Source: a virus
Lineage: Duplodnaviria; Caudoviricetes
IMG/VR virus record: IMGVR_UViG_3300038321_000208
Span: 1-36,575 of that record
Length of the DNA stretch: 36,575 bases
Strand: one strand, 5' to 3'
The notes under the pieces are model-generated. The model saw nothing but the letters and a program-made list of their open reading frames with translations, was not told the origin of the DNA and made no database searches. The position numbers and the translations under genes are program-made. This document shows positions 6,333-19,800 of the stretch, piece by piece (position 1 is the stretch's first letter; each line of letters begins with the position of its first letter).

Positions 6333-6404
6333 AAATAAAAAAAGCCCTCGTGTGAGGACCTTGCAATTATATAAAAAAGAGAGCGGCTATTCGTCGCTCT
6401 CTTT
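6333..6404 (-). terminator. Two tandem intrinsic terminators after the DGR RT
   Basis: AAAGAGAGCGAC-GAATA-GCCGCTCTCTTTTTT (6373-6404, overlapping the RT stop) and GGTCCTC-ACAC-GAGGGCTTTTTTT (~6337-6360). Confidence 0.7.
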
Positions 6405-7733
6405 GATAGCACTATTCCGTTGTAGGGAAAACCAGCCTTCCGTCCATTCCGTATCGGTGTATTCTCCGAAGATTTTTTTCCGAAGCGAATAGCTGTTGCA
6501 GTGTGAAAGCAGAGCGTCATAGGCGCTGAGAGTCTTCTTTGCCCGCTCCAATGAAATTTCACCATCTCGATAATCTTCCATCAAGGCCCGCAACCTTCTC
6601 CGCATTCTAAGGGCTGTGCTTTTCCGAAGTTTCAAATGGTTAGACCACAATCGGAAGCCGCAGAACTCGATTCCAAGGCTGATGGGACGAATGCAGACCT
6701 TGTCGTTCAGATCCAGCTGCAACCGGTCGTTGATGAAATTCTCCAGCATATCCTGCCAATCTTTCAGCTGCTGTTTGCTGTCCGAAAGGATTATAACATC
6801 ATCGTTATACCGGACATAATATTTGATACGGAGCTCTCTCTTTGCGTACTGATCGAGCGGATTAAGGTTCAGATTTGCAAGCATTTGAGATGATAGGGAT
6901 CCCACCGGGAGCCCCCGGTCCGGGATGCGCTCAGCCCTCGGAACTTCTTCCGGACGCTTTCCTGACGGCAGCCCGAAGTTCTGATTATTATCGCAAACAG
7001 TCGCTCTCATCCACGCCTGAACCTGCTTATCGCTGACCTTTCGATTAAACTCTCGAAGCACAACAGCATGTGAAATACGATAGAAATATTTCGATATGTC
7101 TAATTTTAGATAATACCATTTATGGCCTTCAGGAGCATCTTGGAATTCGATTTTTGATTTCCTCGATATGGCCTGCAGGTCATTGATTGATATTTTTTCG
7201 GAAGTTTGGTTTATGGAAATCTCACGGAAACCCTCGTGCGTCCAAACAGCCAGCTTCCCATTATTCCGAACGTTCTGCCAACCGGCTTCAGAAAGAACTC
7301 GTAAAACCGTACTGACCGGATAACAAGGTACATTGTTCTGCCAATCGACCAGCCGAAGCCAGTAATACAGTCGTTCTACCGCCGCAATCTGTCCTCTATC
7401 CTTAATGCTCGCAAAAGTATCTTTTATGTATCCACGGACAAATCGAGGATTCAGCACCCGGTAAAATGCCCACTGTATTACTCGGTCTTCAAATGGCTGC
7501 TTCATAATAAGGCGGCATTTGGGTTCATAAATATAAGATTCATGATACGGGCCTGGGTGGAAATCTCCAGCGAGTAGCCGCTTCTGAATGTGGCATAAAT
7601 TATCAATGAGATGGGCCGAAAACTTGAGAACTTCAGAACGATACCGTTTATCTCGCCGGGCTTTCAAATACGCCCGGTGGATGTTTTCAAACCTCGTGAT
7701 CTCAGGAAATACATTTTTTATCGTTTTTGGCAT
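6387..7733 (-). CDS. DGR reverse transcriptase with HicA-like insertion
   Basis: YEPK.RLI, F.DRVIQ, LKLDISKYF, GLPVGSLSSQ (DGR-type SQ), YVRYNDD and GIEFCGF motifs; no group II intron En domain. Confidence 0.95.
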   Translation of the reverse strand: MPKTIKNVFPEITRFENIHRAYLKARRDKRYRSEVLKFSAHLIDNLCHIQKRLLAGDFHPGPYHESYIYEPKCRLIMKQPFEDRVIQWAFYRVLNPRFVRGYIKDTFASIKDRGQIAAVERLYYWLRLVDWQNNVPCYPVSTVLRVLSEAGWQNVRNNGKLAVWTHEGFREISINQTSEKISINDLQAISRKSKIEFQDAPEGHKWYYLKLDISKYFYRISHAVVLREFNRKVSDKQVQAWMRATVCDNNQNFGLPSGKRPEEVPRAERIPDRGLPVGSLSSQMLANLNLNPLDQYAKRELRIKYYVRYNDDVIILSDSKQQLKDWQDMLENFINDRLQLDLNDKVCIRPISLGIEFCGFRLWSNHLKLRKSTALRMRRRLRALMEDYRDGEISLERAKKTLSAYDALLSHCNSYSLRKKIFGEYTDTEWTEGWFSLQRNSAIKESDE

Positions 7734-7887
7734 CTAAGACCTCAGGAAAACGCAAAAGGCGGCTTTCACTTTCGCTACTTGCAGCCTTCGCAAAATTCAT
7801 TTTTTTGCCAAACTGGCACGGAAACGAATTCCTTTATCCTCAGACTCCGTGCGGCGTCCATGGACGCGCGCCCCTGGTATGAGGTAG

Positions 7888-7999
7888 AGCGGCGCGGAAA
7901 CCCACGCTCCCCGAAGTATACGAGCGCGGATTATTGATGTTGAGGGCGAACACGCCAGCGGAAGCACCATTGGAATAATTACCACCGCGAAAAGGCAAA
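7888..7999 (-). ncRNA. DGR template repeat TR-a (RT-proximal)
   Basis: 112-bp homolog of VR (LPFRGGNYSNGASAGVFALNINNPRSYTSGSVGFRAA). The 3' half differs from VR at 5 nt, 4 of them template A. Confidence 0.92.
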
Positions 8000-8160
8000 A
8001 ATAAATTCGTTCCCATGTTTGCATCGGAGCGATTTTCGCAGATGTGCTACTCACGGCTCCTTAACGTTTCATTTTTTTACTGTAATCAGTACGGAAGCAG
8101 TTCCCTTTATCCTCGGGCTCTGTGCGCTGTCCATAAACATACGTCTCTGGCGCGAGGTAG

Positions 8161-8272
8161 AGCGGCGCGGAAACCCACATTGGTCCCGGAATTGGCACGA
8201 GGGTTATTCAGATTGAGGGCGAACACGCCAGCGGAAGCAGAATCATTCCAATCACCACCGCGAAAAGGCAAA
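8161..8272 (-). ncRNA. DGR template repeat TR-b (middle)
   Basis: 112-bp homolog of VR (LPFRGGDWNDSASAGVFALNLNNPRANSGTNVGFRAA). The 5' half differs from VR at only 2 nt, both template A. Confidence 0.92.
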
Positions 8273-8449
8273 ACATGAACTACTCCCAAATTCATCAAAT
8301 TAAGCTATGTTTTGCGAGGTTTGCATTTGCTACTACCAGCATCCATAGCTAATTCATTTTTTTGCCGAAATGTTAAGCATGGAAACAGGCTCCTTTAATC
8401 TCGTGTTCTGTTCATATATCCTTAGATATATGCCTCCGACAGGAGATAG

Positions 8450-8561
8450 AGCGGCGCGGAAACCCACATCGCTATTGGAGTACGAGCGGGTATAATTGAT
8501 ATAGAGGGCGAACACGCCAGCGGAAGCACCGTTACCGTATTCACCACCGCGAAAAGGCAAA
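8450..8561 (-). ncRNA. DGR template repeat TR-c (avd-proximal)
   Basis: 112-bp homolog (LPFRGGEYGNGASAGVFALYINYTRSYSNSDVGFRAA) with the same invariant blocks and flanking structure; no matching VR segment in the window. Confidence 0.82.
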
Positions 8562-8579
8562 ATACAGCCTGTTCCCGAA

Positions 8580-9098
8580 TTATTTTTTAGAAATTTTCTT
8601 TTGGCATGCGTAGCATAAAGATCTACCGAAGTGTGCAGTAGAATAGTCGTTGATTCTCTTTGTTATTACAGCACCGCAAACCGAGCATATATATTCTTTT
8701 CCTTCTGAATCGATTGTTCCGGACTTTTCACGCTCAGATTTTAACCACCCCCCTACCATCTGCCCGACCTCGACAATGCATTTTGAAATGTTTTCAAACT
8801 GGGGATCCTTCAGATAACCCAAATCGTTTGCCCACTGAATATCCATCTTGAACGCCCCGATCTCGGTATCAAGTTGACGAAGCGTGTCCTTTTTAGTGTA
8901 TTTTTTGTTCGCAACAAAGATCAGCTTTTTTATTGAATTGAATTCCTGCATCAGCGTTTGGACGATTACAAAGCGCTGCTCCTTATTCATTTTCCCGAGC
9001 ACCGGCCATAAGTACAGACCGAGGTCATACACCTTTTGCTGGATAAAAAGTTGCTCGTAGGCTTTTCCAAAGTGTCTATGATCGTTCTTTTCAGACAT
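8580..9098 (-). CDS. avd: DGR accessory variability determinant with C-terminal zinc ribbon
   Basis: L.I.QK.YD...Y....L, K.QRF, ANKK..KK.TL..LD.E and EVG.MVGGW.K four-helix-bundle motifs; located directly upstream of the TRs; CxxC-x20-CxxC tail. Confidence 0.9.
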   Translation of the reverse strand: MSEKNDHRHFGKAYEQLFIQQKVYDLGLYLWPVLGKMNKEQRFVIVQTLMQEFNSIKKLIFVANKKYTKKDTLRQLDTEIGAFKMDIQWANDLGYLKDPQFENISKCIVEVGQMVGGWLKSEREKSGTIDSEGKEYICSVCGAVITKRINDYSTAHFGRSLCYACQKKISKK

Positions 9099-9264: not shown

Positions 9265-9308
9265 ACCCGCTTACGCGGGTGTAGATAAAAGTGGCGCTAC
9301 CGCGCCAC
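9265..9308 (-). promoter_or_regulatory. DGR target-recognition hairpins downstream of VR
   Basis: Minus strand: GTGGCGC-GGTA-GCGCCAC (9291-9308, GRNA loop) and ACCCGC-GTAA-GCGGGT (9265-9280). Confidence 0.75.
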
Positions 9309-9333: not shown

Positions 9334-10710
9334 TCACGATACGCAAAAAGCGGCGCGGAAACCCACGCTCCCCGAAGTCGACGAGCGCGGATTATCGATG
9401 CCGAGGGCGAACACGCCAGCGGAAGCAGAATCACGCCAATCACCACCGCGAAAAGGCAAACACTCAGTATTTGCACTTGTACCTTGGTACTGATAATCAT
9501 TCCCAAATTCGGCCAATCCGGAACTATCGCAATCCCCCATAACAGCGTGCTTCGCAAGTTTAGGATCCGTGTTGAGTTCCGTAACATCTTCGCTACTGCT
9601 TGACCAATTTGTCGGGAATTGTAAGCCCGTATCCGCTTCATCAACATATAAATAGCCGGTCCCTGCACTCCCTACTTTCAACTTCAAGCCGGCAGTCCAC
9701 TCCCAGACGTTACCATTGAGGTCATAGACACCATTGACCCTTCCCGTATGGCTCGTAAGATTCTGACCTGTCTTCCACCCTGATTTAATACCAGTGCCGG
9801 TCAATGCACGGCTGGAAACCGTAGGATCTGCCGTAAACGTGATTCCAGCGTCGTCAGTATCTTTCAAGCTGCTATTGTTTTCATAAGGTCCCCAACGGTT
9901 ACTTCCAAAACGGTCCGGGCCAAGGAGCATCGAATAAATGCCCAGTGCAACCCATTCTTCATCGCGTATAAGGCGTACTCCGATGTCTTTTCCATTCGTC
10001 GCATCGCTGGTCGCACAGGCGATCAAAGCATTGTCATATGTAATGGTCGTCCACGGGATTACACCGCTCTTTGAGACAGCGACCGTACTGCTACCGCCTG
10101 TGGAGGCCGTCGCATCGGCTTTGGATGCTTGAAATTTGAAAGCATAAAAGGGATGGAAAAGAACGACATTGTAATCCACACCCTCCGTCCCGGTTGGCCT
10201 ATGCCGAACAAAAAAGCCTTTTGGCCTACTGGCGTAACCGCAGGCAGATGGATTAATAACCTGAAATGCCCTAAAACCGGGCTGATAGACCCATGCGTTT
10301 GATCCCAGGTTAAAATCGTGAACTTCCAGACTGGAATCACAAAACTCTACTGCTGTTCCATCAGCATAGCCGCCAGAAGGCGCTTCCGGGTAAATGGTAA
10401 TCGGAACTTTGTTCCCTGCCGCCGTTCCACCGGTCGCGACAAGATGATAATTTCCGCCGATTTTTATCATGGCGGTTTTGTTGATATTTCCCGTCAGTGT
10501 GCCGCTTGCCGAATATACATTAACGCTCTGACTTCCCTCGGCGACAGTTTCGACCATAAGCCCCGTTGACGGATTGAGAGTATTTGATACATCTTTCCAG
10601 TGTTCCCGCTGCCATAAGGCGGAAAACACTTCCACGTCGTCTGAATTTAATGAAAAGTTTTCTGCCGGAGGTTCCGGTTGCACCTTTTTCTGCGCACCAA
10701 AGATAATCAT
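9334..10710 (-). CDS. DGR target: tail/receptor-binding protein with C-terminal FGE-type C-type lectin (Mtd-like) domain
   Basis: PW.TI...A..AC, LI...EW, GVYDLNGNVWEW and RGG.W......G........R.....GFR motifs; last gene of the tail module. Confidence 0.9.
   Translation of the reverse strand: MIIFGAQKKVQPEPPAENFSLNSDDVEVFSALWQREHWKDVSNTLNPSTGLMVETVAEGSQSVNVYSASGTLTGNINKTAMIKIGGNYHLVATGGTAAGNKVPITIYPEAPSGGYADGTAVEFCDSSLEVHDFNLGSNAWVYQPGFRAFQVINPSACGYASRPKGFFVRHRPTGTEGVDYNVVLFHPFYAFKFQASKADATASTGGSSTVAVSKSGVIPWTTITYDNALIACATSDATNGKDIGVRLIRDEEWVALGIYSMLLGPDRFGSNRWGPYENNSSLKDTDDAGITFTADPTVSSRALTGTGIKSGWKTGQNLTSHTGRVNGVYDLNGNVWEWTAGLKLKVGSAGTGYLYVDEADTGLQFPTNWSSSSEDVTELNTDPKLAKHAVMGDCDSSGLAEFGNDYQYQGTSANTECLPFRGGDWRDSASAGVFALGIDNPRSSTSGSVGFRAAFCVS
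9349..9460 (-). repeat. DGR variable repeat (VR)
   Basis: LPFRGGDWRDSASAGVFALGIDNPRSSTSGSVGFRAA at the extreme 3' end of the target; colinear with all three TRs. Confidence 0.95.
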
Positions 10711-16826: not shown

Positions 16827-19800
16827 TATGCGCTTTCCTCCAGCGGCGTGTTGTCGTGATCCTTTTCAATCCCCTCGGCAATCGCATCGCTGACAATGTT
16901 CGCTATTTCATCCTTGTGGTCTTTAATTTGCTGTACCACATCCCCATTTCCTCCTTCTACAACAATTTTGATGGACTGAATGATGACCTGGGGCTTACCG
17001 CCGCCAGCGCCTCCGGCCGCAGCGGGCGCCGGACGCGGATGCGGATTCGGAGTATCAGCCTCCGAAGGACTCGACGGGAATTGAATGACATCCCCACCGA
17101 AACCGCCGTTGGCTTTGGCGTCAATGCTCTGGCCGAGCGCGCTCCCGGTCTGCCGCCAGAGCTGCACACCACGATCATGCCTCCGGCTGCTCAGTGGGAT
17201 CACCATTTCAGGCGTTCCCTCTTCACCGAGAAGCGTCACTGTCGGCCGGGATATAAGGCCGCCGGCCGCCTTGTGCGCGCTTTGAGTGGATCCGCTTGTC
17301 GCAGCGCTGTAACCTGCGCTGAAATTGTGAGTAATCGTTCCCCATATGTCTTTGAAGAAGTTCGGCAGGGTATTAGTGAAGAATCCCTTGATGCTATTCC
17401 AAATGGTGGTTCCGAGCTCCGGGAGGGTATTTGTAAAAAACGTATTTACCGAACCCCATAGGCTGGAGAAGAATCCGGGGATCGTTTTCGTAAAGAACGG
17501 AGTGATGTTGTTATTCCAGACGTTCGACGCCCACGTCGGAAGTGTGGAGGTGAAGAACGTCGAAATCCCATTCCAGAGGGTTCCGAAGAAATTCGGGATG
17601 CTCTGCGTAAAGAACGGGACGATGTGGCCATTCCAGACGTTTGACACCCACGTCGGAAGTGTGGAGGTGAAGAACGTCGAAATCCCATTCCAGAGGGTTC
17701 CGAAGAAATTCGGGATGCTCTGCGTAAAGAACGGGACGATGTGGCCATTCCAGACGTTTGACACCCACGTTGGAAGCGTGGAGGTAAAGAACGTCGAGAT
17801 CCCGTTCCAGAGGGTTCCGAAGAAATTCGGGATGCTTTGCGTAAAGAACGGGACGATGTGGCCGTTCCAAACATTTGACGCCCACGTCGGAAGTGTGGAG
17901 GTAAAGAACGTCGAGATCCCATTCCACAGGTTCCCAAAAAAGTTTGGTAGATCTTGGGTGAAGAATATTTGCGCTTTTCCGGTTGCATAACCTATGGCAA
18001 AGGGCAACTGCTGTGTAAAAAAGTTTGGAAGTGTACTCGTGAAGAACGTACCGATGCCGGTCCCCACCGTTTGCACGGCCTGTGGGATCATCTGCGTAAA
18101 GAACGTGCCGAGGCCGGCTCCCATCGTCTGAAAGGCACCGGGAATCTTATTTGTGAAGACATCCCCGATGGCCTTCCCCGCGCCGGAAACCGTTGGAGCG
18201 ACTTTTGTGCTTACAAAAGTCCCGATCCCGGTGCCAATCTTTCCTGCGGTGTCCGGAACCGTCTTTGCGAAAAAGCCTCCGACCGCTTTGCCGGCGTTGT
18301 TCAGGGCGCCGCCCTTATTCGTGGATTTTGCGAGTGCCGAGCCGGCTTTGTTGCCGCCAATCAGGGCACTTGCACCGCCTACACCGGCGCCGACCAGCGC
18401 GCCCACAGCTGTACCAACCCCAGGCACGACAGATCCTATCAACGCGCCGGCGCCGATCATTCCAAGCTTTGTCCCACCCTGGAACTGCTTTTCTCGCTTG
18501 GCTTGCCCGGCCGGCATCTTACTCGCATTATAGAGATCCTTGCCGGCGCTGGCCACGCCGACTCCGGCTGTAATCGCGCCGGCAGTTGCGGCGGAACCGG
18601 CCAACGCCGCACCGCCTGCGGTCGCGGCACCGGAACCGAGCTTTGTCCCAATTTTTCCAAACAGGCTTCCTGCCTTAGACGCGCCGAATTTCTGCAACAG
18701 ACTGCCGCCTGCGGCCGCCTCGCCGGATTCCAGCAGCGGTTTTTCTCCGGAAGGAAGCGCCGGTGCCCCGCTGGACCGTGAGCCGGTCGCCGGGACGCTG
18801 GGCACGCCGACAAAAGATTTTCCGACCAGGTTCACCACGTTCGCCAGCACGTTCATAGTGCCGATGGTAGAAGCGTTCGGCATGTTCATCCCGGAACCGC
18901 CGCTTCCGCTGTTGCTTTTACCCTTTCCGAAAATGCCGCTCAGGGCACCCGTGATCGTTTTGCTCGTGGTGATTGCATTGGAAAGGCCCTTCACGAAACT
19001 TGTGCCGAATTTAAGCCCGATCGCGACCATAAGCACCTTGTGCGTTTCGGCGAAATTCTGAAACGCGCTTACGATCTTTTTGCCGTCGAAGCCCTTCAAA
19101 AACCCAGAGCAGAAGCTTGAGCCAAGATTGGCTCCCTGCTGCCGCGCATCCCCATCGCTGAATCCGAGGAGCGCCGTGATGCCGCCTGTTATCCCGGAAC
19201 CGAGGCTTTCCCCGATCCCGGACAATTTCTTTGCGATTTTTCTTTTTCCTGTGCTGTCCCACCAATCGGCAAATGGTTTTGAAATAACCTCGTCCCACGC
19301 AATTTTGATTTTCCCGCCGATGGATGCGTTTTTGAAGCGGTCCGAGTTGAAAACCTTGGTCATGCGGTCCTCGATGTGGCCCAGCACATCAAATACTTTC
19401 GTGCTTAACGCAGCGCCGAAATCTTCGAGGCTCGACCCGGCCTTGTTCAGCGTCGGACCAATATCCGCGAGGAATTTATTGAACCGCGAAAGGCCCTTAA
19501 TCGCACCGGTCTGGAGGCCGTGCCCCCATTTTGAGATAATTCCGACATCGAATGTATCTTTGATCTGCGATAGAAGCCCTGATGCAGTACGGTTAGCCGT
19601 CTTGTCCATCATGCCATTGAATTCACCCATGCCTTTTACGATGGCGTCAATGGCTTTATCCGCTGGAATTAATCCCTTTTCGGCCATCTTCTGGATCTCC
19701 GGAACCGTCTTCCCCATCGACTGGGCAACATATTTCCAGGCGTTGATGCTATTGTCGGTCAGCTGCAGCATCTCGGAAGAGGACAGTTTGCCTTTCATCC

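Follow-up and report, generated by a model that had tools for sequence, protein, structure and literature searches.

Genomic Setting and Layout of the Locus

The window, that is, the whole stretch of DNA that was analysed, is a 36.6-kb virus record (IMGVR_UViG_3300038321_000208) whose gene content points to a fragment of a tailed prophage. The runs containing this stretch are chiefly fermentation, landfill and bioreactor metagenomes; among the relatives that share the insertion described below, one fragment bears Oscillospiraceae as its source label. The annotated features of the locus all lie on the minus strand, in the order baseplate genes, target gene, avd, three TRs and reverse transcriptase (RT), with hicA and hicB about 5.5 kb beyond.

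The DGR target gene (9334–10710, 458 aa) stands beside baseplate and tail genes. It matches PHROG 2889 (E 5e-27) and the tail family PHROG 5302 (E 1e-5), carries weak lectin-type hints (FGE-sulfatase, E 0.004; PHROG 2889) and ends with the VR (9349–9460). The avd gene (8580–9098) is recognised by Pfam bAvd above the cut-off (E 2e-16) and by NCBIfam Avd slightly below it (77.2 bits against 80). Three templates had been listed in a preliminary description of this DNA, and their number was confirmed: TR1 at 8450–8561, TR2 at 8161–8272 and TR3 at 7888–7999, each followed by a spacer RNA that matches the Rfam family RT-14 above the gathering score (8305–8449, 65.3 bits; 8021–8162, 48.6 bits; and 7750–7889, 57.9 bits, for cassettes 1 to 3). 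The RT gene (6387–7733) encodes an intact protein of 448 aa with the catalytic residues D212 and YNDD (D311, D312) in place, and matches PHROG 1423 with an E value of 3.8e-111. The resident toxin gene hicA (1441–1629; Pfam E 2.8e-22) has its GSH motif intact, and is accompanied by the antitoxin gene hicB (973–1413; Pfam HicB_lk_antitox, E 1e-16).

By each feature open to testing, the locus is a DGR. The best PDB match of the RT is the BPP-1 enzyme bRT (8UB7), both in sequence (E 7.8e-40) and in fold (E 1.3e-22); the VR differs from its templates at template adenines when the comparison is made segment by segment; and a structured spacer, predicted to pair with an upstream segment, lies 3′ of each of the three TRs. 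Sibling phages have VRs that stem from different templates and vary at A positions, an indirect hint at mutagenic retrohoming. The BPP-1 DGR (mtd-avd-TR-Sp-brt, PDB 8UB7 series) shares the gene order target-avd-TR-RT, the adenine bias of the VR differences, and the spacer stem-loop, upstream:spacer duplex and A-run described for cPRT Stop. Unlike BPP-1, the window has a mosaic VR, and its complete TR+spacer cassettes number three.

Several minor features accompany the locus. The YNDD motif (window 6801–6809) occurs in the window RT, P0004, P0005 and P0141, and the other insert-bearing RTs have YMDD or FADD. The Avd protein has a C-terminal CxxC...CxxC extension (window 8580–8700) resembling a zinc ribbon (Zn_Ribbon_TF E 4e-4, below the cut-off; PHROG 13782), which is also present in locus L001. 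A GC-rich hairpin lies directly downstream of the VR (9291–9308, minus strand), and we take it to resemble the target-recognition hairpin of BPP-1, or else to be a terminator. The N-terminal parts of the target gene differ between relatives (L001 3284–4432 compared with window 9334–10710), with the same VR family behind them. The tape-measure gene (17393–17977) contains ordinary 117-nt tandem repeats, and promoter and terminator scans of the window gave results near chance.

An Insertion in the Palm Loop of the Reverse Transcriptase

An extra segment of about 70 aa had been reported after the RT2a region, and it is indeed present: the loop that links the RT2a glycine to the RT3 strand measures 94 aa in the window RT. 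This loop was surveyed in 121 proteins longer than 200 aa, comprising the window RT and 120 homologs among the matches listed. It was 24 aa long in 81 proteins, 37 aa in 22, 27–29 aa in four and 94–97 aa in seven, the value of 97 aa being due to an anchor shift; the remaining seven could not be parsed, and one of these, P0093, is likewise insert-bearing. The excess therefore depends on the reference, amounting to 70 aa relative to typical DGR RTs and to 57 aa, the length of one HicA domain, relative to the sister clade.

The segment of interest (7146–7319, minus strand) corresponds exactly to RT codons 139–196. It is joined to the enzyme by an N-terminal linker (aa 130–138; 7320–7346, minus strand) with the motif NNxPCY and by a C-terminal linker (aa 197–203; 7125–7145, minus strand) with the motif F[QP][DN][AV]P, both kept across the insert clade. 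The site of insertion is the loop at about residues 127–132 of bRT, immediately ahead of the strand that bears the first of the catalytic Asp residues (bRT D138), where bRT has a loop of about six residues in place of the HicA-fold domain predicted in the window RT. Since contigs of four runs from four studies cover the insert wholly or partly, an assembly artefact is ruled out, and eight further loci encode the full insert.

At this site the sister clade P0085–P0123 carries a basic 13-aa extension of its own, for a loop of 37 aa in total, which marks the loop as a hot spot for additions. The RTs with the 37-aa loop offer a ready natural control for the insert-bearing enzymes. The insert also matters for DGR engineering, since it marks a palm loop at which a DGR RT that apparently works tolerates a domain. 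The prototype enzyme has been described as minimal, bRT having "lacked additional subdomains", for example ones that bind RNA, in the passages of its description that treat this point (10.1101/2023.10.23.563531), and in the insert clade a whole domain of a foreign toxin family would have been grafted into the palm.

Likeness of the Insert to HicA

Residues 139–196 had been proposed to be HicA-like, and Pfam, profile and shuffle tests agree on this with AlphaFold2, VIA-align and Foldseek. With the isolated segment, HicA_toxin (PF07927) was the sole family match in Pfam, with an E value of 0.0091 and 16.5 bits, below the 27-bit cut-off; the family was matched by three of seven inserts. PHROG 353, annotated as "toxin", matched the insert with an E value of 5.5e-4. 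When a seven-row insert profile was compared with PDB sequences, the top three matches were all HicA (E 0.025–0.079), and against a profile of six HicAs it reached a probability of 91.5% at 21% identity. Eight of nine inserts outscored all 1000 of their own shuffles against the HicA profile, the exception being the insert of P0009, whose score was reached by 31 of 1000 shuffles. A longer-HicA search yielded three unrelated proteins.

In the AlphaFold2 model of the full RT the insert folds as alpha-beta-beta-beta-alpha, with block pLDDT values of 81–93 and a mean of 89; modelled alone, it adopts the same arrangement again (mean pLDDT 81.7). Through VIA-align searches of 48,161 chains, the closest structures were 1WHZ (Z 9.9), 6G26 (8.9), 4P78 (8.8) and 5YRZ (8.3), with rmsd values of 1.5–2.2 Å over 56–66 residues, and the next match scored 5.3. 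The same entries occupied Foldseek ranks 1–6, with E values from 3e-3 to 0.12 and none below 0.001. The title of entry 1WHZ names a hypothetical protein, which has been superimposed on HicA (PMC3969222). Other folds, namely the PI-PfuI middle domain (Z 5.3), CyaY and the RNase H3 N-domain, fell far under the HicA matches. The insert is thus predicted to have the HicA fold, with a weak but specific sequence signal, and it shares with HicA toxins (PF07927; 6G26, 4C26, 4P78, 5YRZ; HicA-like 1WHZ) the alpha-beta-beta-beta-alpha dsRBD-like fold, the GW motif and the hydrophobic core.

Loss of Toxin Features

The replacement of the catalytic GSH histidine by GKL, reported earlier, was confirmed (G159-K160-L161). 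All 13 inserts have Leu or Pro at the catalytic position, and 11 of them retain the Gly just before it. In HicA this His is essential to activity (PMC11594946, PMC3969222). In alignments read by eye, the conserved HicA residues Ser23, His24, Pro39, Pro41, Asp44 and Gly48 (numbering of PMC3969222), which belong to the end that binds substrate and antitoxin, are replaced in the inserts, and the hydrophobic core and the GW are retained. HicA binds RNA through a positively charged fold that resembles a dsRBD (PMC3969222); the net charge of the inserts ranges from 0 to +6, compared with +8 for the resident HicA. The invariant positions are mostly core hydrophobic ones. Basic or polar surface positions are also conserved, including basic residues at 170, 192 and 194 in all 13 inserts across three divergent lineages, and a new motif, [ND]x[TS]...SxNxL, recurs consistently across lineages in the beta3-alpha2 loop.

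By its residues, the insert probably stands outside the HicA toxins and is better regarded as a dsRBD/HicA scaffold devoid of the catalytic His, whose absence would be expected to entail loss of RNase activity and toxicity. It differs from HicA toxins in this missing His, in its less positive charge, in a Pfam score below the cut-off and in having no adjacent hicB. Free HicA is a small protein encoded in an operon with hicB, whereas the insert is internal to another enzyme, the RT, and the hicAB genes of the phage lie about 5.5 kb off. Because the predicted HicA fold, the absent catalytic His and the selective retention of the domain coincide here, "co-opted nuclease-dead HicA", as the domain had been called, is a fair description; the RNA-binding role attached to that name is plausible only, the net charge having fallen.

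Known HicA fusions offer a partial parallel. In the main text of a survey of 14 HicA contexts (10.1101/2023.12.08.570793), classes 11–14 (HicAB/HicBA fusions, SMC-HicA) likewise place HicA within a larger protein; these are terminal fusions and presumed defence modules, whereas the domain in the window is internal, lacks the His and sits in an RT palm loop. The term "reverse transcriptase" has no occurrence in that main text, and no HicA-RT fusion was found in the open literature.

Origin and Selection

In a quick maximum-likelihood tree of 85 rows, built with the inserts removed and supported by SH-aLRT only, the 10 rows with the insert all group together in a single clade (SH-aLRT 98) within a 39-row clade (97); L023, with no ORF parsed, was dropped. 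No insert-free member falls inside the 10-row clade, despite RT identity down to about 60%. In all 13 sequences the segment from PCY to F[QP] is 58 aa long, and the identity of the insert falls to about 30–35% where that of the RT falls to 60%. From this distribution, the domain appears to have been gained once, inside an older multi-template clade, and kept over a long divergence, which would make it a clean case of toxin-domain domestication.

For the insert, pN/pS pooled over six loci was 0.285 (bootstrap 0.21–0.39), compared with 0.10 for the RT core. Over four loci it was 0.32 for the insert, 0.10 for the RT core and 0.12 for the resident hicA. All these values are uncorrected, and the pairs are not independent. 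The insert is accordingly under purifying selection, weaker than that on the enzyme or on the working toxin.

The domain was likely captured from a hicA gene. The resident hicA was considered as a recent donor and rejected, because it has no DNA similarity to the insert (best DNA match E 0.16; profile identity 21%). A profile search across 1.84 billion representatives found the insert nowhere but in this RT cluster, and a word-index search with the insert gave three RTs. Phage GenBank gave no match to the insert and only RTs of less than 60% identity; no match was found among viral contigs searched with the insert alone, or among genome contigs.

Template Arrays, Spacer RNAs and Mosaic Variable Repeats

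The preliminary description had suggested that the domain selects among the three template stems. According to this proposal, it would read cassette-specific stems and bias template use, and several observations agree with it: the cassette duplexes differ in sequence, no segment of the window VR is traceable to TR1, and all five insert loci with enough upstream DNA carry two to four templates. The anticipated co-occurrence with multi-TR arrays was therefore found, and the insert was not found to be common in single-TR RTs. However, the arrays are older than the insert. Among 84 insert-free loci, of which 13 were too short to score and in which plainly wrong script calls of VR and TR were relabelled by spacing, 12 of the 71 informative ones (sister clade included) have two to five templates and 59 have one. 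In the 39-row clade that surrounds the insert clade, 10 of 11 insert-free loci are multi-TR, so that the arrays predate the insert, and the five-of-five count follows from the insert having arisen inside a clade that was already multi-TR.

The composition of the VRs points the same way. With a single template switch allowed, non-A mismatches fell among the insert loci from 7 to 1 in the window, from 9 to 0 in L001 and from 6 to 0 in L006, and among the insert-free loci from 10 to 0 in L022, from 11 to 2 in L023 and from 8 to 0 in L083, each with p 0.0005 by column permutation. A mosaic VR was thus present in six of the eight loci tested, three of the six being without the insert; in the other two, L010 and L021, the VR follows one template (p 1.0). 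Left out of the permutation test were L007, whose VR is identical to a TR, and L057, whose 3′ half is unexplained. Switching occurs mostly within a conserved central block, giving a patchwork of two or three templates per VR. In the window, the 5′ half of the VR comes from TR2 and the 3′ half from TR3; the siblings L002 and L012 match TR2 in that 3′ half (nine A differences and one other), and a single contig of run X4 leaves the VR flank and, after just 18 shared bases, goes on in TR2-type letters (12 letters). Several, differing templates are hence in use across the insert loci, and siblings fill the same half of the VR from different ones. With multi-template arrays and mosaic VRs found both with and without the insert, a choice of template by the domain is not borne out, and we regard such a role as very improbable.

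The patchwork VR in this multi-template clade is independent of the insert and arguably as interesting. Several complete cassettes feeding one patchwork VR would provide combinatorial diversity beyond adenine mutagenesis. The insert-free sister DGRs (L018–L023, L003, L083 and the L028 group) have multi-TR arrays, RT-14 spacers and mosaic VRs as well, and differ in their 24- or 37-aa loop with no HicA domain. No account of a mosaic VR derived from template arrays was found in the open literature, and passages looked up by term in the DGR surveys PMC5758913, PMC8144416, PMC6642488, PMC4159848, PMC11792537, PMC11318856 and 10.64898/2026.07.21.739853 contain none of template arrays feeding one mosaic VR. 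DGRs with two or six TRs and many VRs are described in PMC6642488, whose supplement holds 122 cassette patterns.

In the window, each upstream segment has its most stable predicted duplex with the spacer of its own cassette (−18 to −21 kcal/mol, compared with −6 to −13 for the others), a likeness to the cPRT Stop duplex of BPP-1 as described in passages of 10.1101/2023.10.23.563531. Cassettes 1 and 2 of L006 depart from this cognate pattern, and reshuffling or misassembly is the suggested cause. RT-14 spacers also occur in insert-free relatives, L083 having no match at the gathering score, and no insert-specific feature was seen by eye in 16 aligned spacers. All three spacers of the window match the full RT-14 model (RF02921; RT motifs of PMC5737381) above the gathering score. 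The main text of PMC5737381 does not name RT-14 and only speculates on a role of some RT motifs in DGRs; unlike that prior account, the present analysis places RT-14 as a DGR spacer RNA, with one copy per template.

Possible Roles of the Domain

The reading that we favour, tentatively, is that the domain may act as a non-catalytic accessory surface for RNA contact, which helps to hold the spacer RNA and takes no part in template choice. This reading is proposed because the modelled fold is an RNA-binding one, the RT is wrapped in spacer RNA, and the length, the linkers and three basic residues of the insert are invariant. In BPP-1 the spacer RNA nearly envelops bRT, touching its palm and thumb (10.1101/2023.10.23.563531), and the location of the insert in the palm loop was therefore counted in favour of RNA contact. 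In the scheme envisaged, a hicA reading frame would have joined the RT by in-frame recombination at a permissive palm loop, whose length in relatives is 24 to 37 aa, the captured domain would then have lost its toxic residues, and as an accessory surface it may help the RT to grip the spacer RNA. Each TR-spacer cassette would prime its own cDNA, as in BPP-1, and partial homing from different cassettes would produce the patchwork VR. The contact with RNA, the position of the domain relative to it and the route of capture are the parts of this scheme that we infer.

Several observations were counted against RNA contact. Within the same phages, the insert changes at about three times the rate of the RT core and of the resident hicA, which fits a constraint on the fold only; its charge is lower than that of HicA; residues at the substrate end are replaced; no spacer feature is specific to the insert; and sister RTs use the same RNA family and have mosaic VRs without the domain. 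Because of the faster evolution, the lower charge and the working insert-free sisters, a second reading comes close behind and has a real, if lesser, chance of being right. The domain may be a tolerated passenger, born of an accidental in-frame fusion of hicA, then detoxified and kept because a misfolding or frame-breaking deletion would harm the RT. A loop that tolerates 24, 27, 29 and 37 aa is compatible with such an origin, as are a pN/pS three times that of the core, invariant positions that are mostly core hydrophobics, and a donor that can be considered at hand because hicAB lies only 4–7 kb from the RT in the phage group. A passenger does not readily explain why no loss or change of length is seen in 13 of 13 sequences over about 40% RT divergence, why linkers and basic or polar surface positions are conserved, or why 507 contigs are listed for one insert-bearing protein.

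The motif in the beta3-alpha2 loop, being consistent across lineages, could instead indicate a domain that docks onto Avd or a host factor, or a rewired nuclease that cuts the multi-cassette transcript through other residues. The absence of His at the catalytic place, the loss of His166 in P0009 and the existence of insert-free arrays that need no such processing make this quite unlikely.

A Possible Link to the Toxin-Antitoxin Module

It had also been proposed that the HicB of the prophage could bind the insert and couple DGR activity to the toxin-antitoxin system. In such a switch, the disarmed HicA in the RT would serve as a decoy that binds the phage HicB or competes for RNA, so that antitoxin level or stress would gate the DGR, turnover of the antitoxin would turn on diversification, or the RT would titrate HicB. 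The hicAB pair follows the RT in all six insert loci with enough flank (window, L001, L004, L006, L007 and L009), their hicA genes being 84–100% identical, and flank was too short for scoring in L005 and L008 and in the deeper lineages L010, L011 and P0141. A HicA match was found in one of 43 other virus records searched and in none of 18 insert-free records that are at least 90% complete. However, all six loci belong to one phage group, with RTs at least 80% identical, so that their co-occurrence counts as one observation, and it equally fits a donor gene family nearby.

The residues of the insert argue further against this coupling. The end of HicA that carries the His is covered by HicB (PMC11594946), and it is this end that is altered in the insert; most residues of the antitoxin end are replaced, the insert is only about 21% identical to the resident HicA, and it drifts while HicA and HicB stay conserved. 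On this sequence evidence we consider the coupling unlikely, although less so than docking or nuclease rewiring. If true, it would mean that the phage wires a toxin-antitoxin module to the multi-template patchwork diversification of its tail receptor-binding protein upon stress or induction, and the arrangement in the window makes a possible link between toxin-antitoxin systems and hypermutation directly testable.

Rearrangements and Array Variants in Relatives

Further observations concern the arrays themselves. The RT-14 spacers of the window (7750–7889, 8021–8162 and 8305–8449) share a conserved AGTA...GAA internal loop, which we take to resemble a loop-E motif. Compact arrays were seen in L021 (4430–4973), L022 (4298–4982) and L023 (4430–4972), with three or four TRs spaced 27–38 nt apart, a near-identical upstream segment before each TR and a single shared RT-14 spacer at the end. 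In these arrays one primer RNA would pair with alternative templates, and the VRs there do use upstream TRs.

In a sibling phage (L002 at about 3980 and L012 at about 5010, corresponding to window 6772–8975), a deletion of about 2.2 kb at a short shared GCAGC has removed all of the templates together with most of avd and the 5′ portion of the RT gene, the insert included. This sibling probably represents a DGR that is locked off, with its VR fixed.
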